From a virus (lineage: Duplodnaviria; Caudoviricetes): a stretch of DNA of 64,000 nt. The translations under genes were made by a program, and so were the position numbers. A model generated the notes under the pieces. It worked only from the letters and a program-made list of their open reading frames with translations, did not search any database and had not been told where the DNA came from. Of this stretch, positions 1-64,000 are shown piece after piece (position 1 is the stretch's first letter; every line of letters begins with the position of its first letter). The DNA is taken from IMG/VR virus record IMGVR_UViG_3300013426_000019, positions 94,769 through 158,768 of that record, one strand, 5' to 3'.

Positions 1-328
1 ACTTACCTCTTGATGTATAGTAGGGGCAAGGCTTAATGATCATTGTGTCTCCTATTAGGTTGTAAGTTACAGCCTTAACGGGTCCAATCTTAACAGGCTT
101 CTTGTCTCTATATAGTGGTTGGCAATGTTGAGGAGCATTGAAGTAATGGGGACCTTCTAGGCCATCATCGTAAGTTGTAATACACTCAATCTCTTGAACC
201 TTAACCCTCTTAGCTGTGTAACCCTCAACAGAGTAGAACTTATACCCCAGAATCTCCGAGTCATATGTAAACTTGGCTGCTATAATAGATCCTTTAGATA
301 ATAATCCTTCAGATACCCGCGCTGTCAT
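1..328 (-). CDS. hypothetical protein, runs off the left edge (MTARVSEGLLSKGSIIAAKF...)
   Basis: Manually translated open frame from ATG at 328 to position 1; AAGGAG RBS and TTGACC-17-TATATT promoter (385..357) upstream; not in the ORF track. Confidence 0.7.
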   Translation of the reverse strand, partial: MTARVSEGLLSKGSIIAAKFTYDSEILGYKFYSVEGYTAKRVKVQEIECITTYDDGLEGPHYFNAPQHCQPLYRDKKPVKIGPVKAVTYNLIGDTMIIKPCPYYTSRGK

Positions 329-420
329 ATTATATGATCTCCTTATCTATATATATATAATATAATATTTGGGGAGTAAGGTCAACCCCTGGGTTGATAT
401 TATTATAAGAGAGGTACACT

Positions 421-573
421 ATGAAGAGTGTTGCAGCGGAGGTATTGATGGAGTTGCTTAATCGAGGAGGGGGTAGAGTAGAGGAAGACGAACTTAGGGA
501 TCTCATAGATCTTAAGAGGCAAGAACTTAACTTAGAACTTAACACAAACCCACTTGAATCTTCTAAGCATTGA
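421..573 (+). CDS. small hypothetical protein, 50 aa (MKSVAAEVLMELL...)
   Basis: ATG 421 with GAGG RBS, open to TGA 573; below the ORF-track cutoff. Confidence 0.55.
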   Translation: MKSVAAEVLMELLNRGGGRVEEDELRDLIDLKRQELNLELNTNPLESSKH

Positions 574-618
574 GGTTATATTATAGATATGTGCAGTACA
601 GTAAGAAGAGAGTTTATA

Positions 619-1365
619 ATGTGTCGTAATTGCCCACAGCGAACACAAGGCAAACCATCTAACATACCAGATGGTTATTATTATGATACCCTTAATGGAG
701 TACAGATCCTTAAAGAGTGTTCTTGTCATATTAAGTGGCGCAAGGCTAACGAAGTATACTATAAGTTAATCAATGCTAACCTTAAGGATAATCCTTATGG
801 CTTTGAGGATTATAAGGGCACAAAGAGCCTAGAGGATGTAAGAGCTTTAGAGTATGTGTCTCAACACTTCGACAAGTTCCTAACTCGTAAGATGATATAC
901 CTATATGGTCCTAATGGCACCCAGAAGACTTCTATGTCGCAGGTCTTAGGTAAGTCCTTAATCGAGCAGGGTTATAAGGTGCAGTATATCTTAATGCAGG
1001 AACTTCTCAATAACCTTATGCCTGACTTCGATGAGACAGATAATGATAAGAAGGCAGTCATTAAAAGGTATATGGAGACTGATCTCCTAATCATAGATGA
1101 AGCCTTCGATAAGAGTAAGGTGACTTTGTATAACTCAGGCTATCAGATCCCGTTCCTAGATAACTTCTTGAGAACACGCTTCGAGATCAATAAAGGTTCT
1201 ATATTGTTTATAAGTAATAAGAAGCCCGAAGAGATAAGTAGTCAGGGATTTGGGGAGTCATTGCAGAACTTTGTGATTAGGAATACAAGAGGCTCTTATC
1301 TTATATTCGAAGATAAGTATATTGAAAATACCTGCCCCGTAGATAGACTGAGCTTGTTCAAGTAA
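619..1365 (+). CDS. DnaC/IstB-like AAA+ helicase loader
   Basis: N-terminal CxxC...CxC, Walker A variant GPNGTQKTS, Walker B DLLIIDE, SN motif; directly upstream of dnaB. Confidence 0.8.
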   Translation: MCRNCPQRTQGKPSNIPDGYYYDTLNGVQILKECSCHIKWRKANEVYYKLINANLKDNPYGFEDYKGTKSLEDVRALEYVSQHFDKFLTRKMIYLYGPNGTQKTSMSQVLGKSLIEQGYKVQYILMQELLNNLMPDFDETDNDKKAVIKRYMETDLLIIDEAFDKSKVTLYNSGYQIPFLDNFLRTRFEINKGSILFISNKKPEEISSQGFGESLQNFVIRNTRGSYLIFEDKYIENTCPVDRLSLFK

Positions 1366-1386
1366 GAGAAGGAGAATTGAGTTATT

Positions 1387-2814: not shown

Positions 2815-4424
2815 TTGAGGAAGATTACAGAGCTTTGAGTTATATTATATATAATATGACAGTGCAAGAAGCGAAGGATATATTACTCAACAATAAGATA
2901 ATAACACCTCTAACTAAGGGTGATGTGGGGTTCAAAGTTAACCCCTCTCTAATAAGACACAATATACCCTTAGAAGAGAAGTTATTAGAATACCCTGAGC
3001 TCTATAAATATCTCCTAACATTCCCCTCTATAAAGGAGGGGTTATATAGATGCTATCATCTACTGGATAAGACTCCTACCTGTAAGTATTGTGGCAAAGA
3101 CTTATACTTCACTAAGGTGAAGTACTCAAGAACATGTGGATCAAAAGAGTGTGTGTTCAAGTTAAACTTAGAGTCTAAACTTAAAAACAACCCAGATGAT
3201 CCTTACAATACTAAAAAGCAAAAAGAAACAGCTAAGAATAAAACAGCGGAGCAACAGGCCACCATAATAGAGAAGAGGAAAAAAACCAAGCTCGAAAAAT
3301 ATGGGGATGCTAATTACAACAACTCTGAAAAAAACAAGGAGACTTGTTTGAAAAAATATGGAGTGACTAACCCTTCATTAGTGCAGGAATTCAAAGATAA
3401 AAGAACTCAAACCAATCTGGAAAAGTTTGGGGAAACTTCAGTCTTCAAAACAGATAGGTTCAAAGAAAAACTCAAGAAGAATAATCTCGAAAAGTATGGA
3501 ACAGAGTATGCATCACAATCAGAGATAATAAAAAACAAGATGAAACAAACTTGTCTCGAAAAGTACGGTGTGGAATATGCGTTCCAAGCTGAGGAGGTTA
3601 AGACCCATATTAAGCAAACTCTGGAAAGTAGAACACCTGAACAAATAGCAGCTACTATAGAAAAAACGGAAAAAACTAATCTTGAAAAATATGGAGTTAA
3701 GTGTGTCTTAAGTAGTCCTGAAATAAAGGATAAAGCTAGAAAAACCATAGAGAAGAAAGTTGAGGAAGACCCTGAATATTGGAAGAAAATAAAAGAGAAG
3801 GGTCTCGGCACCCTAAAAGAAAAATACGGTTCTCTGGAAAAATATTATGAGGTAATTCGAGCAAAAACAAGAGATACTCTAATTAAAAATTATAGCTCCT
3901 TAAAAAAATGCTATGAAGAAAGGAGTGAAAAAGCAAAGGAGAGTAGTTATCAAAAATATGGTGTTGCACATTATAGGAATACAGAAGAGTATAGAGAGAA
4001 GGATAAGGAAATAAGAGAAGCTCAGTACTTGAAGTTCAGAGAAGAAAATCCTACAGTTATATCACTCTTCGAATTAGAGGAAGCCAATAAAGGGTTCTTT
4101 GAGAGTCATGGAGTGAATAAAAATAGAGAACCTATCCTAATAAAGGAGAGTATAGAAGCCCTGGGCTATGAGATAAAAGATTATAACTTCGGTAATGGTG
4201 ATGTATCTAAACACTTCCTAGGAATAGACTTAAAAGGCAAGCCTATCGAGGAGTTCCTGAAAGTCTTCGAGGATATACTCAAAATTAAGTTCAAAGAGTT
4301 TATAGCAGGAGCCTATAGATCTAAGGGTGAAAAAGAAGTATATGATTAAACCTCAAAAATATAGAAACCTCTCATATAGTATTGTTAATTTTAATCTTTA
4401 ATATATTTAACTACTAATATTAGT

Positions 4425-5030
4425 ATGAAAGCAAATGAAGTGATGAAATTATTAAATATCAAAAGCAGGAACACCTTGAGCAGTTATGTAAAGGAGGGTT
4501 TAATAAAAGTAGCTACTACTCCGAGGGGAAGATATATCTACGATGAAGATTCCGTATATAGATTTATAGGACTTAAAAAAGAAAAGAAAAATAAAATAAA
4601 TATATCTTATTCTAGAGTTTCTACGCCCTCTCAAAAAAATCAATTGAAAGAACAAACAAAAAGAATATATGAGTCTTGCTTATCTAAAGGCATACAACTA
4701 GATTTGCAATTAGAAGACGTGAAGTCAGGGATGAATTCAGATAGAAGGGGATTTCAAGAATTAATACAAAGGGTGATAAAAGGGGAAGTGGAATTAGTAA
4801 TTGTAGAAAATAAAGATAGGCTAATTCGCTTTAATTTTGATCTGTTGGAAAATATTTTTAAATATTTTGGAACAAGAATTGTTGTTCTAAGTGAATCTCT
4901 AGATAATAAAAGTTATGAGCAAGAATTAACAGAGGATCTTATTTCTATAATTCATCATTTTTCTATGAAATCGTATTCTCATAGGAGAAAACTAAATAAA
5001 ATTAGAAAAGAATTAGAGGAAAATAATTAA
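4425..5030 (+). CDS. tnpA: IS607 serine recombinase TnpA
   Basis: N-terminal MerR-like HTH, YSRVST catalytic Ser motif, DVKSG, DRLIRF, ELTEDL. Confidence 0.93.
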   Translation: MKANEVMKLLNIKSRNTLSSYVKEGLIKVATTPRGRYIYDEDSVYRFIGLKKEKKNKINISYSRVSTPSQKNQLKEQTKRIYESCLSKGIQLDLQLEDVKSGMNSDRRGFQELIQRVIKGEVELVIVENKDRLIRFNFDLLENIFKYFGTRIVVLSESLDNKSYEQELTEDLISIIHHFSMKSYSHRRKLNKIRKELEENN

Positions 5031-5076
5031 CTCCCTAATTAATCCATACTAATTAATATATAAAGGTATATAAAGA

Positions 5077-6447
5077 GTGAAGACAATAAAGTTGCCTTAT
5101 AAATCAGAAGGTAAAGAAAGAATCCTATCTTATGTGAATAATTTCAATTCCGTATTGAGATTCACATATAATAGAATAACTGATTCTGAAAAAGGCTTAT
5201 CTACGAAGGAACTTACTAAATTCCAAAAAAGCATGAATAATGTCTTCATTGACTCTCACTTTAAAAATTCTGCTATTTTCAAAGCTAAAGCTTTACATAC
5301 GAGAAATCCAAATAAAAAAATATTATTTGGTGGGAAAAAGATATTTGAGCAGAGGAGAAAAAATACTTTAAGTAAGGAAGAGTTTAAAGCTTTGAGGTAT
5401 GCTCCCTTATGTTCTATAGGGGAAGCAGATAAAAAAGGAAATAGGAAATTCCAAATAGTTTCTGATTCCAAAATTCTATTTAAACCCAACAGAAAAGAAC
5501 ATATAGAATTAATCCTCCCAAAACTTAGAAATAATTATAGAAAAGAATTACTAAAATTAATGTCTTTTCAAAATTCTAAGACTATCTCCATTACATATGA
5601 ATTAGATTGCAACTACATATATATTTCTTATGATCTTCCCGCAGGAGAATCTTCTACGAAAAAGAATAGTATCCTTAAGGATAGGATTTTTGCGATCGAT
5701 TTAAATCCCAATTATATAGGATGGTCCATAGTAGATTGGAATAGTGGTGAAGAATATAGATTAGTGGCCTCTGGTTTGGGATCCACCAAGGATCTTAATG
5801 ATTGCGATTTTTCTCTAAAAGGCAAGGGGCTAAATTCTTCCTCAAAAGAAAGAAAATACATTTCAAATAAAAGGAAACATGAACTTGTAGAGATATCTTC
5901 TTATCTCACTTCACTGGCTTATCACTATCATTGTCAAATTTTTTCTATGGAGGATCTAACTATAAAATCCTCTAACAAAGAAAAAGGACATAAATACAAT
6001 AAATTAATCAATAACTGTTGGAATAGAAATCTTCTTACAAATCAAATAGAAAAAAGATGCAAGTTATTGGGTCTCGAATTTTTAAAAGTCAAAGCAAATT
6101 ACAGCTCTTTTGTAGGTAACTTAGCTTATCGAAGAGAGAATAGACCCGATATGATTCTTTCAAGTATTGAGATTAGTAGAAGAGGCTATGAGTTCTACCA
6201 TCAGTACATAAAGAAAGATAAAGAAAAACAAAAGAACATAATTTTCAATGAAAGCAAATCTAATAAAATTCTCATAAAGAAATCGTTGGAAGAATTGAAG
6301 TATGAGAAAGATTTCACATCCATCGAAAAATTATATAAAGAAATAAAAACTCTAAATTTGAGATATAGAGTTTCTTTAAATGAAAATTTAAAGTTTTTCA
6401 GTTTAAAATCTAATAAATCTAAAATTAATTGTTATAATTATATATAG
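5077..6447 (+). CDS. tnpB: TnpB-family RNA-guided nuclease
   Basis: RuvC-I AIDLNP, RuvC-II MEDL, RuvC-III PD...SIEISRRG; no obvious CxxC zinc finger; follows tnpA. Confidence 0.85.
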   Translation: MKTIKLPYKSEGKERILSYVNNFNSVLRFTYNRITDSEKGLSTKELTKFQKSMNNVFIDSHFKNSAIFKAKALHTRNPNKKILFGGKKIFEQRRKNTLSKEEFKALRYAPLCSIGEADKKGNRKFQIVSDSKILFKPNRKEHIELILPKLRNNYRKELLKLMSFQNSKTISITYELDCNYIYISYDLPAGESSTKKNSILKDRIFAIDLNPNYIGWSIVDWNSGEEYRLVASGLGSTKDLNDCDFSLKGKGLNSSSKERKYISNKRKHELVEISSYLTSLAYHYHCQIFSMEDLTIKSSNKEKGHKYNKLINNCWNRNLLTNQIEKRCKLLGLEFLKVKANYSSFVGNLAYRRENRPDMILSSIEISRRGYEFYHQYIKKDKEKQKNIIFNESKSNKILIKKSLEELKYEKDFTSIEKLYKEIKTLNLRYRVSLNENLKFFSLKSNKSKINCYNYI

Positions 6448-7356
6448 ATTGTTATGTTTTAGATATCTTATGTTAAATCTATTGTAGCCGATGAAGTATA
6501 CTATCAGAATAGGGGTATCATCAAAAATCCAGATAATGACAAGCATCTTGAATTAGACATATATATCCCCTCTAAGAAAATAGCAATTGAATATAATGGG
6601 AGTTACTGGCACTCAAGATGTGATAAGAACTATCACTTAAATAAGACCTTAGCTTGTGAGAAGTTAGGCATAAGACTCATACATATATGGGACTATGAGT
6701 GGATATACCAACAAGACTTAATTAAAGGATTCTTGAAAAACCTCCTCACCTCTAAAATCAAAATAGGTGCCAGGAAGTGTGTAGTGAAGAAGGTGGAGTT
6801 AAAAGAGGAAAAAGAGTTCTTGAATACTTATCATCTTCAAGGCTACCAGAAATCTATGGTATGTTATGGCCTATATTACAAAGGAGAGATCCTACAACTA
6901 ATGAGCTTCAGCAAATCTAGATATAGAAAATCTATACCTTACGAGCTACTCAGATTGTGCACCAAAGAAGGTTATACTATAATAGGAGGATCTAACAAGC
7001 TGCTTAGGGAGTTTGAAAGAGAATATAGTCCTAGTAGCATTGTATCTTATTGCAATAGAGATAAGTTCAGGGGAGATGTATATACTCAATTAGGATTTGA
7101 AGCTGAAAAGTTAAAACCTACGGCGTTCTACGTCAAATTAAAGGAGAGTAGCTATTCAAGATTCTCTGCTAGTTCATTAGCTAAAGTTGGCGCTGACAAA
7201 CTTATAGGTACTTGTGATGGTAAAGGATCAAATAATGAAGAGATTGCCTTAAGAGAAGGCTACTTCAAATTGTGGGGTACAGGGCAACAAACTTATGTGA
7301 AAACTATTGAAAAGTAAGGGCCAATTGCTTATACTATATACAAAGAGGAACCTTAA

Positions 7357-7665
7357 ATGTCTAGAAGCACAAAAAAACCTTATATACATTATACATCGTT
7401 CGATCCCAAAACTCAGAGAGCCTTCAGAAACTTGTCTAGAAGGCTTATAAGGCGTAAAGGTAAGTTGAGCGTTAAGGCATGTATGAGCGCAAGAGACTTA
7501 GAGGACGTAGAAGATGTATATCATAAAGGCACCTCCTTTAAAGATGGTTATGATGAGTGGACCCTGCCCTCAGATGGTCATCAGCACTACTATAATATAA
7601 AGTCTGGGAGTTGCTTAACTGAAGAAGAACTTAGGGAAGATAGAAAAAAATCTATGAGGAAGTAG
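7357..7665 (+). CDS. small basic hypothetical protein
   Basis: ORF with GAGG RBS and own -10-like element. Confidence 0.65.
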   Translation: MSRSTKKPYIHYTSFDPKTQRAFRNLSRRLIRRKGKLSVKACMSARDLEDVEDVYHKGTSFKDGYDEWTLPSDGHQHYYNIKSGSCLTEEELREDRKKSMRK

Positions 7666-7688
7666 TAGCTCAAACTAATTAAAACAAT

Positions 7689-8981
7689 ATGATCATATGC
7701 AATGAAGTCACGGAAGGGAAGCCTCTTAAGATAAACACAAAAACAGGGGTTATAGAGTGTCAGAAGCTAATAGTGGACAGCACTCTAAACAATACCATCA
7801 TAGACACAAAGAATGACACAATTAGGACTGACTACTGCTATGTTCGGGAATACATGGAAGAGATTCAATCGAGTTCAGAGAGTCCTATTATAATCTCAAG
7901 TCCGACCATAGAGAAGGCGATTAAGTTATGTAGTCTTAAGAGACCTAAAGCAGATACGGGCCCTACTGTCTGGCTATCATTAAAAGAGCCAACACTTAAA
8001 TATATAGACTTCGGAGATGCTAATAGAACCACTCTAAATATAAAGTATCAGGAGATCTCAGAAGACAATTATCCTAAAGGGCAACCTAAATGGATAGTGT
8101 GGCAATCAGGAGCCTCATTAAGCCTGGATATAATAAATAAGATATCTGCCTACGATATATATGATCTCTGGAATACTCTATATAGATATCATGGCTTCAG
8201 GGGCTTTGATGGTGAATATAAAGGTTACATAGCTCAAATAATACTAAATGCAATAGCAAGCAATGAGGACTCAAACCTATCTGAAGAGTTAATAACGTTT
8301 CCAATAGACCTTGATTATTGTAATATAATCTACTCAAGCGCTGATCAAATGGAGAAATTTGAGTTCTATAGCTGGAATATCTGGAAGGTTCTAGTACCCC
8401 AAATGTTTGGGCTAGAAATTGACGATAAAGGCGAAATCACCTACCTAGAAGGCTCAGAATTGTTCTACAGCAAAGACAGTGATTGCAGAGTATCATTGCC
8501 AATACCTTCAGTATACATAGGACTAGAAAATAATAAGGGCAAGGCAACACCCTACATAGAAATATCTATACCCGCAAATGATACGAGAAAACCACAAATA
8601 GAGTGGGCATGGAGAAGTACCTACAGCTCCTCATTAGAAGAGGACAAGTGGAATCATGCAGATGCAGGAACTACTACTATAAAGTTAACAGACGCTCAGT
8701 ACTTCGATATGGGCGACGGAAATAAATACACAGGCAAGTTCAAAGGACAACTACTAGTAAGAACGCACAAAACTTACGACTTCACGAAAGGCTTCGGTTC
8801 TATAAGAGAAGTATACTCTGATATAAGGTCCATTACACCGGAAGGTTCAGAAGATATAAGAGGTAAGAATATACAAGTAGGTGCAACCTTAGATACTTCG
8901 GGCAAGGTTATATTGGGTAACCTTGCAGTAAAGAAAAATGATACTCTAACAGATATACTAATAGGTGAGAATGCAAGATGA
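7689..8981 (+). CDS. hypothetical protein, probably virion-associated
   Basis: 430-aa ORF preceded by ACTAATT motif; ATGA overlap with the next gene. Confidence 0.6.
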   Translation: MIICNEVTEGKPLKINTKTGVIECQKLIVDSTLNNTIIDTKNDTIRTDYCYVREYMEEIQSSSESPIIISSPTIEKAIKLCSLKRPKADTGPTVWLSLKEPTLKYIDFGDANRTTLNIKYQEISEDNYPKGQPKWIVWQSGASLSLDIINKISAYDIYDLWNTLYRYHGFRGFDGEYKGYIAQIILNAIASNEDSNLSEELITFPIDLDYCNIIYSSADQMEKFEFYSWNIWKVLVPQMFGLEIDDKGEITYLEGSELFYSKDSDCRVSLPIPSVYIGLENNKGKATPYIEISIPANDTRKPQIEWAWRSTYSSSLEEDKWNHADAGTTTIKLTDAQYFDMGDGNKYTGKFKGQLLVRTHKTYDFTKGFGSIREVYSDIRSITPEGSEDIRGKNIQVGATLDTSGKVILGNLAVKKNDTLTDILIGENAR

Positions 8982-10291: not shown

Positions 10292-10306
10292 AAATAATAG
10301 TAGAAA

Positions 10307-10326: not shown

Positions 10327-10359
10327 ATATTATTGCTCAGGGGTTATATTATATACAAT

Positions 10360-52365: not shown

Positions 52366-52367
52366 AC

Positions 52368-53785: not shown

Positions 53786-53801
53786 CTAATTATCCTCTTC
53801 A

Positions 53802-55823
53802 TTATCCTGGTATATTCAAACTTAAATCATCACTCTGTTGTTCACCTGTACTCACTACTACGGGGCTCGTATCCTTCTTGGATATTGAGTCTACATAGGT
53901 TGTTATTGTACTGAGGGTTGTGTTGATATCATTAAGAGTGCTTATTATACGTTGATTGTTCTCCTCTTGTGCATCTGAGGTTATTGTTGCCTTGGAGTCT
54001 AAGGAGAAGATCATACTCTGATACATACCATTGTTATCTAAGTTTGCCTTGATACTGTTAACTTGTGCCTTCAATAAGGTCTTTGTTAGATCTAAGATAC
54101 TCTCTTGCTTAATAGATCTTAAGGCCTCAGCACTTGGCATGTCACTGTCACTAAGTTCAAAGACCTTAGAGCTTATGGCTTTGAAGAATGTAGTAGGTTT
54201 GCTATTAGAGGTCTTGTCGTTCTGTAAATCCTTAAGGGCATCCTTGATGTACTTGTCACTCGCCTCTGAGGATACTTGTCCTAAAGAGTCAAAGTAAGAG
54301 GTTATGTAGCTTACTATACCTTGATCTCTGGCTTGTGTTACTACATCTGTTGTCTTAAGAGCTTCTATGTCTTGTGGATTAAGTAAGTCCGATATTAAGC
54401 TCTTAAGAGCCTTGGTATTACTATCATCTGTATCCCCACCAAACACACTTGCAAAGAAGTTCCTAACTGACTTACCTGCTGAAGTTGCTCCAGACTCCTT
54501 AACTTCCGAAGATGCCGCTGCCTGGGCTAATGCTTCGAAGTAGCTTCCTATGTAGGTTACTACACCTTGCTTCTTGGCATCCTTGATCTCATCCCAGCCT
54601 AATGCCTCACTAACTGTTACTTGAGTAATTAGGGCATCTGCTATATCTTTAAGGTTCTGATTAACCCCGGAATTTGTTGATAATCCAAATAGAGTACCTA
54701 AGAAGTTCGTGACTGACGTAGCGGCAGCCGCTGATACACTTGTAGCTAATGTGTCTATAGATTGTGACTTAGCTTGTGCTTTAAAGTATGCATCAATGTA
54801 GTATATTATACCGCTGTGTACTGCTGCATCTAGCTCACCTCTCTCGTCACCTTGCTTAATAGTATCAGTTGTCTGAGACTCTATAAGATCATTGACTATG
54901 GATTGTATGTGCTCATAAGACCTAGAAGGAGCTTGTATACCAAATATGCCACTAAATAAGCCCTTAATAAACCCATTAATTGAAGAGCCTATAGATGTAG
55001 CTAACCCCGTTGCAAAGGTGTTCGTAGCCATGATCGCTGTTTGTGTAGCGAAGTAAGTACTTAAGTAGGCAATCATACCTATCTTAACTGCCTTGCCTAC
55101 TGCCTCATCACCTGTATACATCTGAGCTGTTTGAGTATCTATGATAGCCTCAGTTATCTCCTTAAGCTTGTTGGAGGTCTTATCTGACTCAGTTGCTTTG
55201 CCAAATAGACTTGTGAAGAAGGATCTAACGGCCTTACCCGCTCCTTCACCTATGGCTTGTAATGTGCCCGATACTAACAACGAGGCTGATTGTTGTAGGA
55301 AGTATGCTTCAAGATATGCTATGAACCCTACCTTCTGGGCAGCTAGAACTGTCTTATCCTCTTTAAAGCTGCTTGCTGTTAAGTTCTGATTAAGCTCATC
55401 TATAATAGATTGCATGTGTGAGGTTGTATCGTCAGATACTCCCCCAAACAATCCCTTAACAATACCTGTCGCAACTGTTGCAGCTCCCGCTACGGCCAGC
55501 ATAGGCTTCAAGAGGCTTATTATGCTTGCAGTAGAATTATCACTGCTGCTCTTATTATCTTTGCTATTGTTAATGATAGTATCTAGGTCTTGATGCAGCA
55601 ATAAGAAGCCTGCAGGTATAACTGCATTTAAATTACCTGTAGCATTGATGATATCACTAACCTTAGGAGTTGAAGATACTGTAGGCTTAGAGGTCCAGAA
55701 GTTCTCAAGTCTCAGTAGAGTACTCTCAATAACAGCATTGAAGTCTGAATTAGAGACCTCTACTACTAACTTACTCTGTTCATCTGTTAATAGGCTGCTT
55801 ACGCCTTTAGGTGTGTCTGCCAC
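53802..55823 (-). CDS. tape-measure-like repeat protein
   Basis: Five roughly 80-aa helical repeats (G...Y(I/L)..YF); follows the chaperone genes. Confidence 0.55.
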   Translation of the reverse strand: MADTPKGVSSLLTDEQSKLVVEVSNSDFNAVIESTLLRLENFWTSKPTVSSTPKVSDIINATGNLNAVIPAGFLLLHQDLDTIINNSKDNKSSSDNSTASIISLLKPMLAVAGAATVATGIVKGLFGGVSDDTTSHMQSIIDELNQNLTASSFKEDKTVLAAQKVGFIAYLEAYFLQQSASLLVSGTLQAIGEGAGKAVRSFFTSLFGKATESDKTSNKLKEITEAIIDTQTAQMYTGDEAVGKAVKIGMIAYLSTYFATQTAIMATNTFATGLATSIGSSINGFIKGLFSGIFGIQAPSRSYEHIQSIVNDLIESQTTDTIKQGDERGELDAAVHSGIIYYIDAYFKAQAKSQSIDTLATSVSAAAATSVTNFLGTLFGLSTNSGVNQNLKDIADALITQVTVSEALGWDEIKDAKKQGVVTYIGSYFEALAQAAASSEVKESGATSAGKSVRNFFASVFGGDTDDSNTKALKSLISDLLNPQDIEALKTTDVVTQARDQGIVSYITSYFDSLGQVSSEASDKYIKDALKDLQNDKTSNSKPTTFFKAISSKVFELSDSDMPSAEALRSIKQESILDLTKTLLKAQVNSIKANLDNNGMYQSMIFSLDSKATITSDAQEENNQRIISTLNDINTTLSTITTYVDSISKKDTSPVVVSTGEQQSDDLSLNIPG

Positions 55824-55840
55824 AATTATATCTCCTCTCC

Positions 55841-56023
55841 TTAGACTCCCTGAGATGCTACACTTGCCCTGATCATATTAGCTAGAGTTGTGTATCTATT
55901 CTGGAAGTCGTGGAACTCCATATTATTAATCTCACTTAAACTTGTATTAAGTCTAAGCATCATCCCTGTCGTCATAGTCATCAGATCCTGATAACTGCAT
56001 GGCTTGAAGGATAACAGAGAGTC
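55841..56023 (-). CDS. gp51-like/GT extension (60 aa) in the +1 frame
   Basis: DSLLSFKP...LSEINNMEFHDFQNRYTTL...*; frame opens just before TTT CGA. Confidence 0.6.
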   Translation of the reverse strand, partial: DSLLSFKPCSYQDLMTMTTGMMLRLNTSLSEINNMEFHDFQNRYTTLANMIRASVASQGV

Positions 56024-57017
56024 GAAAGGGAAAGGCCTGCTTGACTACTTTGCCTGAAATTGGATTGAGCATGCTTACTTCAGGCTTAATCCCAAATCTC
56101 ATACTTTGTTGCTTAGTGTTAAGCTTGGCTATCATACCATAATCAAGTCTAGCTTCGTCCTTTAAGAGCTCGTACTTCTCTCCTACTGTTAAGTTGCTTA
56201 TGTCTTCACCATTGTAGTTGACTATTGATATAATCTTTGCCACTTCAGATAGAGTCTTGAGTCTCTCTGCTAAGTAGTCATTGTATGCCTTCTCTTCCTC
56301 AGGATCATAGTGTATCAACTTATCTACCAACTCTGTGTTGTCTGTATCACTCTTAAGTTGGTTTATAATATTCCAATTGAACTGTATCTTGCTCTTTATA
56401 CCTTTGAACTTAGCTTCTTCTTCAGCATAGTATGTGTCTAGCCAGTTCTTAATAACTAGCTGATCCTTGTAGTGTATATAGTCAAATATACAGTAGAACC
56501 CCGTCCTCTTGTTTGTAATTTTGATCTTAGAGGTAAAGTCCTCTGGGAGATCATATATTTCTACATCTTTAGATATATCTATGCAAGTTCTTGGTACCCA
56601 CTTCTTGGTCTTGACATCTTCTAATCTCTTAGGTGTTTGTTCCAGTATCTTGTAATCTTCTGGGCTTAAAGGATATGGGATGTCTTCTAACTTATTCTTG
56701 TAGAAGGTCTTGAAGATGTATAACATCAACTCCTCAACTTCCTTCTCATGCCAATCTCCCACGTCTACATCTTCATATATCATATTGTTTAAGATACTTA
56801 TAAGTCTAGCAGGTATCTCGGATTCTGAGGACATGGCTAACTCTACAATATCAGATACTTTGAAGTTCCTAACATGTACTACCTCTGGCGCACCTACCTT
56901 GCCCTGTGTAGATAGTCTAACCTCTATATAACCTACTGGGATAGTTTGTATGCTGTCTACCACCCTCTCTGAATTCCTTAATGTATTCAATATAATATTG
57001 TTATCTCTTAATCTCAT
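55953..57017 (-). CDS. baseplate hub/tail assembly chaperone (gp26-like)
   Basis: VRL...VHVRNFKVSD motif; upstream of the tape-measure-like gene. Confidence 0.6.
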   Translation of the reverse strand: MRLRDNNIILNTLRNSERVVDSIQTIPVGYIEVRLSTQGKVGAPEVVHVRNFKVSDIVELAMSSESEIPARLISILNNMIYEDVDVGDWHEKEVEELMLYIFKTFYKNKLEDIPYPLSPEDYKILEQTPKRLEDVKTKKWVPRTCIDISKDVEIYDLPEDFTSKIKITNKRTGFYCIFDYIHYKDQLVIKNWLDTYYAEEEAKFKGIKSKIQFNWNIINQLKSDTDNTELVDKLIHYDPEEEKAYNDYLAERLKTLSEVAKIISIVNYNGEDISNLTVGEKYELLKDEARLDYGMIAKLNTKQQSMRFGIKPEVSMLNPISGKVVKQAFPFRLSVILQAMQLSGSDDYDDRDDA

Positions 57018-57190
57018 ACTTCTGTTTATCTTAATCCTTCTTCTTCCTTTGCATTAGGCCCCCTAGAGGCTTAATATAATTAGTTTATAGGGCGATTTGT
57101 TTGGACAATTTATGCATTTTTTTTTGATAGAGCTTGAACTAATTTAATAATTAAATTATTATTATATTGTTAATAAGGAGTATATAAGTT

Positions 57191-57847
57191 ATGTCTGAAG
57201 ATAAGAACTTAAATGGTGGATTTGAATATCCAGACACAAATGGTATGGGTACTAAGGCTAAAAGAATAGCTAATATCTATTCTGATATTCTAAGTCTAGG
57301 TAATAGACTCCCAAAGCAAATCTCAGAAGAGGATTATATTAAGGCTAGAAACGCTGTTAAGGCTATGTGGGATGCTATGAATAATAGTCATATTGCTAAG
57401 GCAACTCACAGTGGTGTTCATTTTACTAAGAATGGTGATTTCCCTAAGGAAGGATCATTCATTAGTATATACTATACTAGCCGTCTGTCTAGTAGTGGTG
57501 AGTTAAGAGGTACAATCTATGATGATGATGATCTTAACTACTATAGACCTGCAACAAGCTCCGTAAATATGTTAGGAGGTCCTAGAGCCCCAAAAGAGGT
57601 ATATGTCTATGCTTATGATGCAAAGGCTAAGGGAATTAGCAAAGGTAGTCATAAATTTGTATATTTTGTAATCTGGCATAATAGCGCTGCGCATCTCTTC
57701 AAGTATTATACGGATATTGATGTTCTCCGAGAAGAACCTACTATTTCGGCCAAAGATATTCTTAGATGGGCTTATGTTGATAAAGGGGAGCTTACTAAGT
57801 GGATCCCTGACTATATTCTCGATGATGCATTTGAGAACTTAGACTGA
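57191..57847 (+). CDS. hypothetical protein
   Basis: AAGGAG RBS; oriented against its neighbours. Confidence 0.6.
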   Translation: MSEDKNLNGGFEYPDTNGMGTKAKRIANIYSDILSLGNRLPKQISEEDYIKARNAVKAMWDAMNNSHIAKATHSGVHFTKNGDFPKEGSFISIYYTSRLSSSGELRGTIYDDDDLNYYRPATSSVNMLGGPRAPKEVYVYAYDAKAKGISKGSHKFVYFVIWHNSAAHLFKYYTDIDVLREEPTISAKDILRWAYVDKGELTKWIPDYILDDAFENLD

Positions 57848-57867
57848 TTCTTAATCTTACACACAAC

Positions 57868-57897
57868 AATAAAGGAGGACCGAGGTCCTCCTTTATT
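57868..57897. terminator. bidirectional hairpin terminator
   Basis: AATAAAGGAGGACC-GA-GGTCCTCCTTTATT. Confidence 0.75.
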
Positions 57898-57915
57898 TGT
57901 AATATTCACATTCAA

Positions 57916-59535
57916 TTACATCATAGGCATACTAGGAGCTGCAGGCATTGATGTCTTAGGTTCAGGGATCGTTGTAATCGATGCTCCCGAAGTTAGTACT
58001 AGACTTGCCACAGATGCTGCATTCTCAAGTGCACATCTTGTTACCTTAGCAGGATCAATAACTCCTTCAGCAATCATATCTACAATCTTACCTGTTAGAG
58101 CGTTGAAGCCTTTACCTGGTTTAGCTGTTGCAACCTTATCAGCGATTACTTCACCTGCTAAGCCTGCATTTAGAGCAATCTGCTTAACTGGTGCACTTAG
58201 CGCTTTAATTACAATGTTGTAACCCCTTAGCCAATCAGTATCTGCATCTGTTGGGGTTTTAAGCTTAGCTGCGATCTGACATAGAGTTGTACCGCCCCCT
58301 GGTATAATGCCTTCTTCAATTGCAGCTCTTACTGCATTGATAGCATCTTCTACTCTATACTTCTTCTCCTTAGCTGCAGCTTCTGATACATCGCCAATGT
58401 TAATAACAGCTACGCCACCTGCTAATCTTGCTAAGCGTTCCTGTAGTTTTTCTTTGTCGTAATCTGAAGTTGCTTCTCCTACCTGAGTTCTAAGCTGTGT
58501 TACTCTATTCTTAATCTCATTAGGATCTCCTTCACCACCTATAATAGTTGTGCGATCCTTTGTAACCTTAATAGACGATGCACTACCTAGCTCATCAAGA
58601 CTGACATCTTTAAGGTTTGTGCCCAAATCTTCTGAGATCATTGTTGCACCTGTTAAGATTGCAATGTCCTCGAGCATATCTTTCTGTCTATCACCAAAGC
58701 CAGGAGCCTTGACAGCACATACTTTAATTAAGCCTCTTAGACTATTAACTAGTAATGTTGTGAGTAGATCACCCTCAACCTCTGGTGCTATAATTAAGAA
58801 CTGCTTACCTGTCTTAACTACCTTTTCTAGTAGAGGCATAAAGTCTTGAATGTTACCAAGCTTCTTATCTGTTACAAGGATAAGTGGTTCTTCATATTCA
58901 GTTGTAAGATTGTCTGAGTTTGTGCAGAAGTAAGGTGATATATAACCTCTATCGAAGCTCATGCCTTCTACAAAGTCAATGTATGTTTCAGTTGTCTTAG
59001 ATTCCCCAACTGTAATAACTCCGTCTGATCCTACCTTTTCAATAGCATCTGCAATTAGACTGCCAATTACAGGATCATTGTTAGCTGAGATCTCCGCTAC
59101 TCTTGTAATCTGATCTTTACTATCAATCTCCTGGGCCATCTCTTTAAGTTTAGCTACTACATCCTTAACGGCTTCATTCATACCGTTTCTAAGCTTAATT
59201 GGATTTACGCCTGTAGATACTGCTTTAACTCCTTCTTCCAGGATTGCCTTAGCTAGTACGCTACTTGTGGTTGTACCGTCCCCAACATTCTCATCCGTCT
59301 GAGATGCAATATTCTTAATGAGCTGTGCTCCCATATTTTCTAGAGGATCACTTAATTCAATTGCTTTTGCAACAGTTACACCATCTCTTGTTACAGTTGC
59401 AGGACCATATGAGTTTTCAACTAGTACTGTTCTTCCAGCTGGTCCTAATGTCTGAGCAACAGCATCCACTGTCTGCTCTACCCCCTTCATGAGGGACTTT
59501 CTCATTTCTTCATCAAATGTAATATTTTTTGCCAT
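57916..59535 (-). CDS. groL: group I chaperonin GroEL
   Basis: TLGP, DGVTVAK, GDGTTT, FDRGY, KAPGFGD, EKLQERLA.LAGGVA, GVIDP. Confidence 0.96.
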   Translation of the reverse strand: MAKNITFDEEMRKSLMKGVEQTVDAVAQTLGPAGRTVLVENSYGPATVTRDGVTVAKAIELSDPLENMGAQLIKNIASQTDENVGDGTTTSSVLAKAILEEGVKAVSTGVNPIKLRNGMNEAVKDVVAKLKEMAQEIDSKDQITRVAEISANNDPVIGSLIADAIEKVGSDGVITVGESKTTETYIDFVEGMSFDRGYISPYFCTNSDNLTTEYEEPLILVTDKKLGNIQDFMPLLEKVVKTGKQFLIIAPEVEGDLLTTLLVNSLRGLIKVCAVKAPGFGDRQKDMLEDIAILTGATMISEDLGTNLKDVSLDELGSASSIKVTKDRTTIIGGEGDPNEIKNRVTQLRTQVGEATSDYDKEKLQERLARLAGGVAVINIGDVSEAAAKEKKYRVEDAINAVRAAIEEGIIPGGGTTLCQIAAKLKTPTDADTDWLRGYNIVIKALSAPVKQIALNAGLAGEVIADKVATAKPGKGFNALTGKIVDMIAEGVIDPAKVTRCALENAASVASLVLTSGASITTIPEPKTSMPAAPSMPMM

Positions 59536-59562
59536 TTATATTTTCCTTCTATATTTGACAAG

Positions 59563-59588
59563 TCTACTCTCTATACCTAGAGAGTAGA
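59563..59588 (-). terminator. hairpin between SSB-like gene and groL
   Basis: TCTACTCTCTA/TAGAGAGTAGA. Confidence 0.6.
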
Positions 59589-59606
59589 TCTTTTATTTAG
59601 ATTTTT

Positions 59607-60899
59607 TTACACAAACGATACACCACAGTTAGGGCATGCTTCTACAGATAGAGGTGCCGCAATACCACACCCTTCCTCAGGACAACATGCTAACTCTTCT
59701 ACGGGGCAGTCCCACTTAATATCTGTGACTCTACCTGATGAGTCTTTGATAACTTCTAAGACCATTGCCTTCTGCTCGTCTGTTAGAACCTCTGGGTGTG
59801 GTAGATCTCTCCAAGCTTCTTTCTTTGCTTCAGTTTTTACCTCAGCCTTAGGTGTTCTTCTAGTAGGGGCAACTGATTCCACTGTAGATGTTTCCTTAAC
59901 TTCTTCCACAGCTGATGTTGATGTAGTCTTATTCTCATCTGCATAGAGTTCATCCCACATCTTCTTTTCACTTGCCTGTCTCTCTACTAGTTCTTCGTAG
60001 AACTGTGTTCCAAGTGCTGCGTCAATTCTCTTAATGGTATTCTTAAGTTTGTTATATAACTTTGTATATGTTGTTACCCTATATAACTTCTCTAAGTCGT
60101 ACTTTTCCCAAGATCTCTCTTCAGCAGTTAAGTCAGATTCCGTTGAGATTATATCTCTTACAGATGCATCTACTTCCATTGGTGAGTGTGATGCATTTAC
60201 TACATTGAACGGATTATTCATTGATCCTGTTCTTGTAATTGCCATATCATACTTCTCCCAATTACCGTATGACGCAAAGAGATGATTTAGTTTGGCTGAG
60301 ATTGCATATGCTGAGATACCTTCATCAATATACTCTGTACCATTGGCTCCTGTTGATGATCCTTTGGCAAGTAATACTGTGTGCTTATTCTCTCTATGCC
60401 ACTCCATTTGAGATCTGTCGATAACGTTCATCATTAGGACTTCCTTGCCCTTCCAGCCTTTTTCAAACTTTGCTCTAGGATCTGTCTCATCTAAGCCGTT
60501 CTTGTCTACTAGATTATAGATATCAGGGAATGCCTCTTTTACTGGGAAGGTCTTGACGCCATTAACCCACTTGACTCCGGAGACTTTCGTGATGATCTTG
60601 TTGATGATGTAATTAGGATCTTCTGAGATAGATGGTCTAATGAGTCTGAACTTCTTACCATCATCACCCATAACCCATGCCATGGTAACTGTTCTTGCTG
60701 TGTAGTTGTCTAACTTTGAATTTGGTGGGCCGCCCTGAGCTCTAATAATCTTTGGTACATTTGGTGTTAGTGGTGCCCATTTAATGTCTTCATAGTCTCT
60801 TGAATAAGAGTAACTGTTGTTGCTGTTGCTTCTAGCTGCTTGTGCTTCCTGTTCTTTTGCATAGGCTAAGAACATGTCATCGAATGACTTACTGTCCAT
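59607..60899 (-). CDS. gp32-like single-stranded DNA-binding protein with C-terminal zinc ribbon
   Basis: NVIDR, YD..ITRTG, YDLEKL pattern; CP..C...CPNCG C-terminus. Confidence 0.5.
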   Translation of the reverse strand: MDSKSFDDMFLAYAKEQEAQAARSNSNNSYSYSRDYEDIKWAPLTPNVPKIIRAQGGPPNSKLDNYTARTVTMAWVMGDDGKKFRLIRPSISEDPNYIINKIITKVSGVKWVNGVKTFPVKEAFPDIYNLVDKNGLDETDPRAKFEKGWKGKEVLMMNVIDRSQMEWHRENKHTVLLAKGSSTGANGTEYIDEGISAYAISAKLNHLFASYGNWEKYDMAITRTGSMNNPFNVVNASHSPMEVDASVRDIISTESDLTAEERSWEKYDLEKLYRVTTYTKLYNKLKNTIKRIDAALGTQFYEELVERQASEKKMWDELYADENKTTSTSAVEEVKETSTVESVAPTRRTPKAEVKTEAKKEAWRDLPHPEVLTDEQKAMVLEVIKDSSGRVTDIKWDCPVEELACCPEEGCGIAAPLSVEACPNCGVSFV

Positions 60900-61042
60900 G
60901 TTTTAATACCTCTTTCTTTAACCACATAGGGTTTCTTGGTTTAATTGTTGATCTCTTCTGGATCATCTTCTATGTTATTAATATAACATTATATTTAGTA
61001 GTTTTCGTCATATTTTGGAATTTTTTTTCTTACTTAAAGGGC

Positions 61043-61071
61043 TTGACATTTCTATTATAATGTGCTATTAT
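61043..61071 (+). promoter_or_regulatory. sigma70 promoter with extended -10
   Basis: TTGACA-17-TATTAT with TGn. Confidence 0.7.
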
Positions 61072-61096
61072 ATATATAGATAAGGAGATATAAGTT

Positions 61097-61303
61097 ATGC
61101 AATTTAAGATTGAGTCAGTTACACGCGTAGGCAATACTACTGTATCATGTCAAGAGCTTATGGAGGCTCTTAAGTGGGTGGCACCTAATACCCCAATCTC
61201 TATTAAGATAGATGATAACTACGCAGGTATCGCAAGTGTTGAGCTTGAAGCCACTCCTGAGGGTAATGAGGATCATGAGGTTACAATCACTCTTAATACT
61301 TAA
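61097..61303 (+). CDS. small hypothetical protein
   Basis: AAGGAG RBS and promoter. Confidence 0.65.
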   Translation: MQFKIESVTRVGNTTVSCQELMEALKWVAPNTPISIKIDDNYAGIASVELEATPEGNEDHEVTITLNT

Positions 61304-61341
61304 TCTCTCTTCCTGTCTATTTTCCTTTTCACTCTTAATTA

Positions 61342-62112
61342 TTAGGCCTCTTCATGAGGCTTAATTTTGTAGAAGTATCTCTTAGTTGTAGCATATGTTG
61401 GGAACGTCTGTAACTTGTACTTCAATAGACCCCTAGAAGCTGTTCCTAAGTTAACCACAAATGGTCTTCTATTTAGATTATACAAGTATCTGTAAGATAG
61501 ATAGTCTAGATATCTAGATATATTCTTGAAGCGAGGGTCATACTTGCCCAACATGTAAGTATAGGTTAGCATACCACTCTCATCAAACCTACCACAGTCA
61601 AACACCGCATAGCCAACTAAGACATCTCCTAAGTAGAAGAATAAGTTGATAGTTTGACCCTTAAGTCTACTCATACTTTCTTTAAAGTATCTCTTATCAT
61701 AACCCAAGTGAACATTCCAACCATAATTCTTATCCCCAATTTTATCCCACCATACATTCATTAGGTTCTCTAGTTGTGCTTCATCTTTCCCTGAGTAGTC
61801 CCGCAGTCCTCTCTCAACAAAGACTTTGTTATACTTATTACGTATATTCCTTAAGTGTTTATATTTAGATCCCTCTAACTTAAAGAACTCCTTATCGAAG
61901 GGTCCTTGTGTAACTTCTATCTCTGATGAGCTCTTAGTAGGGCCAGGATTATCCATATACATATATGACACCTCGGCATTGTTATCCTTGAAGTTAGGAT
62001 CGAAGGTTACAATCTTAGTATGAGCCTTGTCCTTATAATATGTAAGAGGTCCTATTAGTGTTGCTGCTTTAGGTAACATGCCATATATTGATATGCTGTT
62101 TGCGTAATTCAT
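61342..62112 (-). CDS. DUF2156/GNAT-fold protein
   Basis: LEGSKYKHLRNIRNKY, LVGYAV, VNLG...GLLKYK; ATG 62112 overlaps the MTase stop (ATGA). Confidence 0.55.
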   Translation of the reverse strand: MNYANSISIYGMLPKAATLIGPLTYYKDKAHTKIVTFDPNFKDNNAEVSYMYMDNPGPTKSSSEIEVTQGPFDKEFFKLEGSKYKHLRNIRNKYNKVFVERGLRDYSGKDEAQLENLMNVWWDKIGDKNYGWNVHLGYDKRYFKESMSRLKGQTINLFFYLGDVLVGYAVFDCGRFDESGMLTYTYMLGKYDPRFKNISRYLDYLSYRYLYNLNRRPFVVNLGTASRGLLKYKLQTFPTYATTKRYFYKIKPHEEA

Positions 62113-63227
62113 AACTTCTCCATTGTCACGCATACTTCGTTATTCTTTGTATTGCCTGCCTTTTTAGTTAGATGGCTTCTGCTTGTTTGATAAGGTAGTC
62201 TCTCTAACTCCCTTAACCCTAAGTTCTCCATAATACTTGTCATATCCTTAAGTAGCTCTTTACCTTGATAAGACTCTATCATTATTAGGGTGAACCTACC
62301 TTTACTTCTTAACTTACTTGTGCAATTACTTACTGTAGGAGTCCAATATTTACTTAACCACTCATCATATTGATGATAGCTATCTATAGATTGAGAGCCC
62401 CCTGAATATATCTCTAAGTCTAAGTAGGGAGGGCAAGCTATCACATAATCAACCTCAGGGATAGTTTGATACATTCTAGACTCTTCGCTACCCCCTCTGT
62501 AGAACCGACTACCAGTGTCACCTAACTTGTGTGCTAACTCCGCAGTATTGGCTGTTACAGCTGCAGGGTCTATGCCATAATATACCTTGTCTAAACTATT
62601 GGCAGCGAGATATCTTGCAGACCAACCTATTGAAGGGTCTAATACTTTATTTCCCTCACAATATCTAGATATTAAGAACTTGGCTACCATAGGCTTGAAG
62701 TTACTCGGACTGAACCCTATCGCTGAACTCCTGAATCCTTGTATTAGCATATCGTCAGACATATCGAATAAGTAATGTGCTCCCGCTTTGTACCACTTGC
62801 CCCTCTCCCCCCAATCTGTCTTAGAGCTGGCATAGCCCATACGGTTTTTCAAGACCTTTAGGAGTAACTTATCATCGTAGAATGCACTCATTATAGACGG
62901 TGTCTTAGGCCCTCTACAGTCCCAATAGCTAGGATTAATACTTCTACATATATCTAACCCTAGAGATCCACTATTCTTAATCTCCCCTTTGTCGTTTAAG
63001 ACGTCTTTAGGGTCTTTGTCTTTAAGCTTACCTAAACTCTCAAATAGCTCACTCTTAGTCATCTCCGGGTATGGGAACCCTACTGTTCTGTAGTGCTCAA
63101 ACACCTTCTGAATCCAATAATCTTTGTCCTTCCAGATATTTTGAGCTGTTAGGATTGTACCTTCTAGGATAAGTGGTGTCTTAGACGAGTAATTAATGTA
63201 GCATACTTCTTCGCTCTCGTAGTTCAT
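62109..63227 (-). CDS. DNA amino-methyltransferase (m6A/m4C type)
   Basis: VLDPSIGW SAM-binding motif, YYGIDP, ACPPY..LEIY catalytic motif. Confidence 0.8.
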   Translation of the reverse strand: MNYESEEVCYINYSSKTPLILEGTILTAQNIWKDKDYWIQKVFEHYRTVGFPYPEMTKSELFESLGKLKDKDPKDVLNDKGEIKNSGSLGLDICRSINPSYWDCRGPKTPSIMSAFYDDKLLLKVLKNRMGYASSKTDWGERGKWYKAGAHYLFDMSDDMLIQGFRSSAIGFSPSNFKPMVAKFLISRYCEGNKVLDPSIGWSARYLAANSLDKVYYGIDPAAVTANTAELAHKLGDTGSRFYRGGSEESRMYQTIPEVDYVIACPPYLDLEIYSGGSQSIDSYHQYDEWLSKYWTPTVSNCTSKLRSKGRFTLIMIESYQGKELLKDMTSIMENLGLRELERLPYQTSRSHLTKKAGNTKNNEVCVTMEKL

Positions 63228-63252
63228 ATTATTATTATAACCTTAACGGGAC

Positions 63253-63849
63253 TTACATTGCACTCAGTTTAGATTCATTAGCGAAGGCAAGGGATTCTGT
63301 CTCTACATTCTTACATAATCTGTTAAGGATTAAGGCATACTTATCCCAGCTATCTAATAATCTCCGAATTACTGCTACTTTGTTGTTAGCTGCATTGGCT
63401 TCTCTTGTTAGTTTATGTAATTCTTCTTGATGATTAACTCTTACATATGCTTCGATCTCACTTGAACTACACCACTTCTGCGCGGATAGAGATAGAGGAT
63501 TGAGCTTCTCCCTGGCTTCTATATACCACTCTGCTTGTTTGTCTTTAAGCAACTCATCTGCCTTGTAGGCCTCTTGCTTGGCCATGACGTCTAGACCTAT
63601 TAGAGATGTTTGAATTCTGTTGTAATCCATTAAGGCGTTGTTAAGCTCAAACCAGCCTGGGGATCCTTGTAGCTCCCCTAAGTTCGAGTACTTCTGCATT
63701 TGACTTATCTGTTGCTCTACAAACTCAAGTAACTTGTCTTCAGCTGTCTTCTCTTTAATCGTGGCTGTGTATGTATCGAAGGCATTGTCTACATCTGAGA
63801 AGCTGTTCTGGGGTGTAGTGGTCTTGTTAGAACTCCTAGTTGGTATCAT
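63253..63849 (-). CDS. UvsY-like helical recombination mediator candidate
   Basis: Long helical protein with SSSEIEAYV; near SSB-like gene. Confidence 0.4.
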   Translation of the reverse strand: MIPTRSSNKTTTPQNSFSDVDNAFDTYTATIKEKTAEDKLLEFVEQQISQMQKYSNLGELQGSPGWFELNNALMDYNRIQTSLIGLDVMAKQEAYKADELLKDKQAEWYIEAREKLNPLSLSAQKWCSSSEIEAYVRVNHQEELHKLTREANAANNKVAVIRRLLDSWDKYALILNRLCKNVETESLAFANESKLSAM

Positions 63850-63952
63850 GTGTAATCTCTCCTCTCAATTATAGTATAACTCTTAGTTAGCAAAGTTTGA
63901 GGTAATTATATAATTTAAGTTAAGGCAGTTGAAGTCTCAGCCCCACCAAGCC

Positions 63953-63984
63953 TATCTATATATCCATTTATGGATATATAGATA
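63953..63984. repeat. 15-bp perfect inverted repeat
   Basis: TATCTATATATCCAT-TT-ATGGATATATAGATA. Confidence 0.8.
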
Positions 63985-64000
63985 TACTTGTATTTATATA

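Follow-up and report, generated by a model that had tools for sequence, protein, structure and literature searches.

Short U-rich words have been removed almost completely from the transcribed strand of a large tailed bacteriophage, from which we analysed a stretch of 64,000 nucleotides (the window, bases 94769-158768 of the single 158,768-bp virus record IMGVR_UViG_3300013426_000019; GC content 36.5%) together with the remainder of the record. It is established that this pattern reflects selection which is blind to reading frame, directed at a base-specific target and exerted on whichever strand is read by transcription over long units. The tetramers UUUY are avoided most strongly, followed by AUUY and any stretch of three U, in coding and noncoding DNA alike. 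The initial annotation had named TTTT as the avoided motif, and TTTT is indeed avoided, but this description is too narrow: the avoidance takes in TTTN and ATTY and extends to terminator tails and other noncoding DNA.

A recount exactly reproduced the absence of TTTT from the + strand of 7320-20500 and 29780-42070 that had been noticed by eye, as well as the single + strand AAAA (at 46428) within 42192-57017. On the + strand of 7320-20500, runs of one, two, three and four T number 2154, 547, 39 and 0, and A-runs reach a length of 7. The genome-wide count covered 106,856 nt of native domains, each taken in its sense direction, in which runs of four or more T (T≥4) number 19 against 199 ± 8 in dinucleotide-preserving shuffles; the corresponding figures for A≥4 runs are 588 and 808 ± 21. 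Gene calls are greedy picks of open reading frames (ORFs), and the native gene set consists only of genes oriented with their domain; at least one pick (genome 108843-109265) is an antisense artefact, and it stands outside this set. Shuffling synonymous codons within each of 79 native genes (84 kb) keeps the protein and the codon usage of each gene; since that usage is itself already biased, the null errs on the conservative side by design. Under this null 203 ± 11 TTTT are expected and 6 are observed (z −17), while TTT stands at 331 against 1092. The depletion thus goes beyond nulls that preserve protein, codon usage and composition, and it is one-stranded; neither a match to such a null nor symmetry between the strands, the two outcomes that the initial annotation had set against its own claim, was found. 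Phenylalanine is encoded mostly by TTC, as had been remarked (562 TTC vs 254 TTT), and TTT occurs chiefly ahead of a G, a position in which TTC would give rise to a CpG. Among the rare runs of four T (T4) that survive on the sense strand (window 46428; genome 28613, 75472, 89083, 91366, 96495, 97369 and 152028), nearly all are followed by a purine, and seven read (G/C)TTTTAG. About ten T4 exceptions lie inside genes, four of them in the last gene of a unit.

The ratios of observed to expected counts (O/E) of NTTN words under the synonymous-codon shuffle resolve the target base by base. TTTT (0.03) and TTTC (0.04; 11 vs 266 expected) are nearly eliminated, ATTT (0.17), TTTA (0.25) and ATTC (0.29) are strongly reduced, CTTT (0.48) and GTTT (0.58) less so, and ATTA, ATTG, CTT[ACG] and GTT[ACG] are normal or enriched. 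TTTG looks normal because the Phe codon TTT is used before G to escape CpG; in the other two frames its ratio is 0.2-0.3. The dependence on run length is steep (0.30 for T3, 0.03 for T4), and neither TT nor TTAT is depleted; interrupted runs of the type TT[ACG]TT are barely affected (0.79), and TNTC-type words are not avoided (TATC 1.13, TCTCT 1.00). No reading frame differs from the others in the strength of the avoidance, and only 3% of the codons that precede a codon starting with TT end in T. In 4.9 kb of sense-oriented noncoding DNA within native domains, TTTT and TTTC are both absent (24.6 and 12.7 expected), and AAAA stands at 0.95. The presence of the effect in every frame and in noncoding DNA means that translation is not its cause, and an AT skew of about zero at fourfold-degenerate sites (0.02 ± 0.19) means that T is not being lost by mutation in general. 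The pattern is of the kind expected of an mRNA interferase, in that a short RNA word is missing from transcripts regardless of frame or coding status (TTTY 0.03-0.04; 0 of 37 expected in noncoding DNA).

Early genes retain AAAA (0.84) and GAAA (0.83) while TTTT and TTTC are at about 0, so that the depletion is neither two-stranded nor palindromic, unlike an avoidance of restriction sites; these genes keep A-runs of up to 7 without a T4, which is not the pattern of a general avoidance of mononucleotide repeats. Late and structural genes (window 50533-55823; genome 21907-27785 and 61406-73265) also shun AAA in all frames, with AAAA at an O/E of 0.21 and lysine encoded mostly by AAG. This may be slippage avoidance, possibly added on top, or may reflect antisense read-through. 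CpG is strongly depleted as well (O/E 0.37 here, 0.31-0.75 across the family; GpC is normal) and competes with TTT avoidance at Phe codons. Minimum-free-energy folds of native mRNAs (window 42192-57017, reverse complement, and genome 101450-115570) leave A largely unpaired (0.38; 0.17 for AAA) because U-runs are few; the same values in folds from non-avoiding relatives are 0.43 and 0.29.

The strand that is free of T-runs changes at least eight times along the 159 kb, always with the orientation of the gene blocks. The initial annotation had left open whether replication strand or read-through transcription sets the bias; it follows the orientation of transcription units and not the replichore, as the number of flips and the absence of AT skew at fourfold sites are not those of a replication-type asymmetry. 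Its further suggestion that the asymmetry points to something acting on a single strand is supported. In spacers between divergent promoters, T6-T9 runs lie just upstream of the promoters and are gone downstream; all of these runs are on the strand on which the regional rule allows them, and they are compatible with, without proving, an avoidance limited to transcribed DNA.

Genes embedded in antisense orientation carry the argument further. Two of them, both on the − strand within a + domain, obey the regional strand rather than their own sense, as the initial annotation had correctly said of the first: 36638..37207 has 10 TTT and 2 TTTT in its own sense and 1 TTT and no TTTT on the regional + strand, and 39993..40505 has 6 own-sense TTT and 1 on the + strand. 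That these genes are real follows from their substitutions relative to a 93% identical phage (G001, described below), which fall on the three codon positions as 4/7/37 and 4/6/24, and from their reading frames, both of which stay open, the first ORF being intact in G001. A gene for Hsp20 (identified by a PHROG hit) behaves in the same manner, with 5 TTTT and 0 AAAA in its own sense. A hand tally of nine embedded genes gave T4 O/E ratios of about 0.5 for their own sense and about 0.06 for the regional sense; the avoidance of AAA in late genes could explain part of this signal. In the − domain, the embedded + strand gene 57191..57847 has its own sigma70-like promoter with a T9 run in the non-transcribed spacer upstream, and both of its strands are partly depleted, with 2 T4 each.

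The purge includes the transcription signals themselves. GC-rich hairpins with stems of 6-10 bp follow many native genes and also lie at convergent junctions. They have TTATATTAT, TGTTATTAT or TTTATTG as tails, and internal hairpins never carry a T≥4 run. At 36591..36637 (+), for example, a terminator-type hairpin is followed by TTATATTAT instead of a T-run, and the bidirectional hairpin at the convergent junction 42071..42191 has the tail TTTATTGTTTTC in the − sense, which is among the few T4 sites and lies at the very end of the − transcription unit. In the non-avoiding relative L004 terminators are canonical, with a hairpin and T8-T10. The avoiding lineages have thus kept the hairpins and lost the terminator U-tracts. 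Promoter-like motifs fall into three classes, namely a sigma70-type GCTTGACA-N17-TATAAT, TTATATTATATA(C)AT and CACTAATTA. Examples are found in the window at 29714-29781 and in the genome at 2723, 9681, 17495, 19843, 30122 and 116662; the first, a sigma70-like promoter at about 29714-29781, lies just upstream of the T-run-free domain 29780..42070. The TTATATTATATA(C)AT motif precedes start codons by 12-38 nt and in many cases comes immediately behind a hairpin. The CACTAATTA motif takes the form ACTAATTT in relatives and ACTAATTA here, so that even a promoter-like motif has lost its T-run. Units with sigma70-like, TTATATTATATA and CACTAATTA promoters are all free of T4, and the purge therefore does not belong to a single temporal class.

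T-run-rich islands depart from the rule, and every TTTT island of the window proves to be inserted or replaced DNA when set against a relative of 93-95% identity. Islands amounting to 43.5 kb have a GC content of 0.314 (0.386 in native DNA) and contain 518 T-runs and 704 A-runs. Comparison with G001, an IMG/VR relative of 67.8 kb that is 93-95% identical and shows the same purge of T-runs, dates several of them. An IS607/TnpB element (4349..6468, +; TTTT-rich, GC 0.28), a PemK/MazF-like toxin cassette (20580..21198, +), a T-run-containing intein with Hint and LAGLIDADG domains in QueC (22561..23553, +) and a gene for a 694-aa DUF7487 endonuclease-like protein with 31 TTTT (27338..29646, +) are all absent from G001. 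A cassette of queE and queD-GIY-YIG (24755..26659, +; 25 TTTT, GC 0.30-0.32) is replaced there by a T4-free, non-orthologous queD-queE pair of 31-36% identity. TTTT thus marks recently acquired DNA, as had been proposed for the IS607 element, the PemK cassette, the QueC intein, the endonuclease gene at 27472 and queE/queD; the proposal fails for the 3′ end of dnaB, whose T-runs are shared with G001 and are therefore older. The PemK-like gene is not the cause of the purge, since it belongs to a recent cassette that is absent from the equally purged G001. G001 has a T-run-rich island of its own (L012, 9285-15543; 6.2 kb, GC 0.31, seven ORFs of 144-479 aa), at whose position the window phage has none. 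It is classed in IMG/VR as a provirus (29% complete), and no integrase or host flank was seen in the 48 kb that were read.

Selection against these words is strong, purifying and ongoing. Across 19.5 kb shared with G001 there are 1,317 substitutions; if the same substitution spectrum were placed at random positions, 19 ± 5 TTTT would be expected in G001, which has 1. Within the phage family we compared sense-strand T≥4 runs per kb in the same syntenic structural block. This phage (0.07), G001 (0) and the relatives L002, L005 and L017 (0.23-0.45) are avoiders, and values elsewhere are 3.9 (L019), 4.0 (L018), 4.7 (L016), 7.2 (L021), 7.4 (L015), 8.3 (L004) and 8.4 (L020). A maximum-likelihood tree of a 673-aa protein places the clade of this phage as sister to the non-avoiding L018 and the P0014 phage (L020), and the L002 clade as sister to the non-avoiding P0006 phage (L019). 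Judged from these sequences, the most parsimonious history would be two independent gains of the avoidance, the alternative being, as the root is not fixed, one gain and several losses. In the second clade (the L002 group) TTTT stands at 0.05, TTTC at 0.03, TTTA at 0.67 and TTTG at 0.95, and the motif core common to both avoiding clades is UUUY.

As to the agent of selection, we tentatively favour, at somewhat less than even odds, a single-strand-specific endoribonuclease that would be active in infection and recognise UUUY/AUUY. Each U-rich tetramer would then be a breakpoint acting in cis on long polycistronic transcripts, and a single site would cost all downstream genes and be purged, whereas spacers that are not transcribed, the opposite strand and newly imported DNA would be spared. 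Such an enzyme might be a host RNase of the abortive-infection or toxin type, a host RNase that initiates decay, or a phage nuclease for shutoff or competition; phage messages free of sites would survive and U-rich host or rival messages would be cut. We favour an RNase because the specificity lies in the bases: TTTC is avoided about as much as TTTT and more than TTTA, and ATTC and ATTT are avoided while ATTA and ATTG are not. This base specificity, including that of the second clade, is more readily reconciled with a recognition site than with weak rU:dA hybrids. A further reason is that the purge is as complete in early units with perfect sigma70 promoters as it is in late ones. T-runs abound in imports of bacterial type (DegV, IS elements, queE/D), which, together with the full purging of sigma70-type units, implies that ordinary host transcription tolerates T-runs. 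The phage also carries RNA-handling genes, among them a ligase-like DUF6267 protein, a fusion of HD and nucleotidyltransferase domains and a TROVE-like DUF2828 protein, which suggests a conflict at the RNA level.

Several observations weigh against an RNase. Profile scans of the phage proteins recognised no RNase of UUUY/AUUY specificity. U-tracts are also missing at convergent junctions, although a cut on the 3′ side of a terminator hairpin ought to do no damage. The mRNAs of the embedded genes themselves retain UUU, so that such an enzyme could not be lethal to every message, and the islands (27% of the genome) abound in sites and appear to be functional. Nor are the residual TTT clearly sequestered in structure: their paired fraction is 0.665 compared with 0.655 for all U here, and 0.692 compared with 0.642 in the second clade. 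A wider formulation, which we hold to be possible but less likely than not, is a hitherto undescribed discrimination of self from non-self by RNA composition, in which a nuclease or termination factor of phage or host origin acts on UUUY/AUUY in single-stranded RNA and the phage's own transcripts are invisible to it while messages of the host or of competing phages are targeted. Two lineages would, independently of each other, have recoded upwards of 100 kb apiece, with changes in promoters and terminators as well as at synonymous sites.

A serious competitor, not among the candidates of the initial annotation, is that transcription ends prematurely or pauses; we give it perhaps one chance in a handful or slightly better. 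The RNA:DNA hybrid is weaker over U-rich stretches, and if each of these carried a small chance of stopping the host RNA polymerase, the losses would multiply over read-through units of 10-20 kb and T-runs would be purged; internal terminators would be disarmed, with the hairpin kept and the U-tract lost, as a cis alternative to antitermination factors. Analogues exist in the T5NT signal of poxvirus early genes and in the oligo-T of archaeal and RNA polymerase III (Pol III) transcripts. The loss of terminator U-tracts in avoiding lineages, set against the T8-10 terminators of L004, is in keeping with this, as is the extensive read-through implied by the regional-strand purging of embedded genes and by the purging of both strands near convergent junctions. 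The climb of avoidance with run length, the in-gene T4 exceptions that fall in last genes and the T4 tail that ends the − unit point the same way, and termination explains the U-tract loss and the read-through architecture at least as well as an RNase while calling for no additional enzyme. It does not, however, account for the avoidance of ATTC and ATTT, which hold only two or three U, or for TTTC being avoided as much as TTTT and more than TTTA; TT[ACG]TTT is no more depleted than TTT alone, by which a NusG-type TTNTTT pause motif was also rejected as the target, and TT[ACG]TT is barely depleted. Moreover, host-type imported genes and sister phages carry hundreds of T-runs, and no phage RNA polymerase or known antiterminator was found: a DFDGD-type motif occurs in no ORF, about 85 proteins scanned gave no Pfam or PHROG hit to a polymerase, and profile scans of phage proteins detected no antiterminator.

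An attack on single-stranded DNA by a DarT-like T-motif ADP-ribosyltransferase or nickase, acting on the non-template strand in transcription bubbles or on the lagging-strand template, would likewise produce a strand-specific loss of a T-rich tetramer limited to transcribed DNA, and the published DarT motifs are T-rich 4-mers (TTTW, TNTC, TTT/TCT). We consider this candidate of the initial annotation improbable. The 588 A≥4 runs are T-runs on the complement and the islands hold more than 500 T-runs on each strand, so that the genome would still be fully vulnerable during replication; at least eight flips with gene orientation are implausible for replication direction, TNTC-type words are unavoided, and the preference for TTTC over TTTA is the opposite of TTTW. 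About equally improbable is a transcription-associated mutational loss of T-runs on the non-template strand. It would tie the pattern to transcription, and imports do seem to ameliorate (Dak2, at GC 0.43, has 2 T4, and its partner DegV, at GC 0.31, has 21), but fourfold AT skew is absent, TT and TTAT are undepleted, and the choice of codons depends finely on context, including the trade-off with CpG; we know of no mutational process with this signature. Least probable of all is a translational cause, either slippage of tRNA-Phe at UUUY or an influence of codon pairs. The tetramer UUUY is a textbook site of frameshifting and the choice of Phe codon depends on its neighbours, but the equal avoidance in all frames, in noncoding DNA and antisense to embedded genes contradicts it. 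A purine-loading or anti-duplex explanation was rejected, as CTTC, the complement of the abundant GAAG, is enriched.

Avoidance of a motif driven by a factor that targets nucleic acids is a known kind of phenomenon, and several systems resemble the present one in part. The poxvirus T5NT motif is likewise a T-rich word of the sense strand that is excluded from transcribed regions and acts in cis on the transcript; here, however, the purge extends to all temporal classes, the motif (UUUY/AUUY) is shorter, the terminators lack it, and a bacteriophage apparently uses the host RNA polymerase. Archaeal RNA polymerase and Pol III share with our case a threshold of about four T, the non-template strand and a sense depletion inside units, whereas this phage has sigma70-type promoters and bacterial DnaB/DnaC/DnaG/PolA, GroEL and DegV/FakA proteins, and T-runs are not used at most unit ends. 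Short RNA words are also lost under ZAP (CpG) and RNase L (UU/UA) in eukaryotic RNA viruses and in MazF-resistant ACA-less mRNAs; here the nuclease is hypothetical and the virus is a phage with double-stranded DNA (dsDNA). Restriction avoidance and the single-orientation EcoP15I sites of phage T7 similarly involve a short word that a system targeting nucleic acids has caused to be lost, or to be biased in orientation, throughout a genome, but the word here is non-palindromic, abundant on the other strand and changes orientation with each transcription unit instead of keeping one orientation genome-wide. The thymidine ADP-ribosylation of single-stranded DNA by DarT/DarTG shares the T-rich four-base motif and the single-strand specificity, with different base preferences (TTTC is avoided more than TTTA here, and TNTC is not) and with the other strand and the islands full of targets. 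We know of no comparable genome-wide, near-total case in a dsDNA phage; full-text searches of the literature turned up no description of such a phage in which U-rich tetramers are almost completely purged from the transcript strand, and a review of non-translational codon pressures made no mention of homopolymers, terminators, RNases or slippage. What would be new is a near-total purge that includes terminators, in a dsDNA phage, and that on the parsimonious history has arisen twice.

The phage encodes DnaB, a DnaC-like loader, a DnaG-type primase, a split PolA, clamp-loader-like proteins and FEN for replication; FolE, QueD, QueE and QueC of the 7-deazaguanine pathway with a YhhQ-type transporter; and GroEL, an SHMT-like enzyme, a thymidylate kinase, the TROVE-like DUF2828 protein and two proteins of about 2,350 aa. 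Of the native domains in the window, 7320..20500 (+), which is without a T≥4 run in 14.1 kb, has genes assigned by Pfam as SHMT-like, DUF2828/TROVE-like, radical SAM and SAM-synthetase-like, and 29780..42070 (+) has those for thymidylate kinase, FEN, a DEDD exonuclease and an SbcC-like protein. The − sense domain 42192..64000, nearly devoid of AAAA on the + strand and with 3 sense-strand T4 in 21.9 kb, comprises the structural block, GroEL and a 2339-aa protein (42192-49211, −) that has no match in Pfam, PHROG or PDB sequences; a gene of 2360-2490 aa closes the structural block in every relative. The 2368-aa protein (genome 65682-72788, +) matches only PHROGs of unknown function. At genome 2811-7741, the gene for the 921-aa DUF6267 protein precedes that for a protein of 716 aa in which DUF5662 is fused to a poly(A)-polymerase-like nucleotidyltransferase and a cytidylyltransferase, and the two may form a kit for RNA repair or RNA tailing that would be relevant to a conflict fought over RNA. 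GGAGG-type ribosome-binding sites, together with several near-perfect TTGACA-N17-TATAAT promoters, show that the host is a bacterium with Shine-Dalgarno sites. The DegV/FakA-type imports suggest a host in Bacillota or a neighbouring group, DegV clusters being mostly from Bacillota or Mycoplasmatota in a protein cluster atlas. A search of genome contigs for the host with TnpB and the DegV-like protein found no relative, near-identical phages were not found in GenBank, and IMG/VR yielded the single relative G001; the relatives derive from gut and other metagenomes.

The signature has uses of its own, since within this phage family it maps transcription units at base-pair resolution and separates native from recently acquired DNA, and the two avoiding clades with their sister lineages offer a natural comparison for finding the responsible gene. 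It also shows that terminators lacking a U-tract are compatible with a working phage. If a factor directed at UUUY in RNA exists, it would represent a new principle of defence or host shutoff in gut bacteria and, if this is true, a bacterial counterpart of the pressures that ZAP and RNase L exert on animal viruses.

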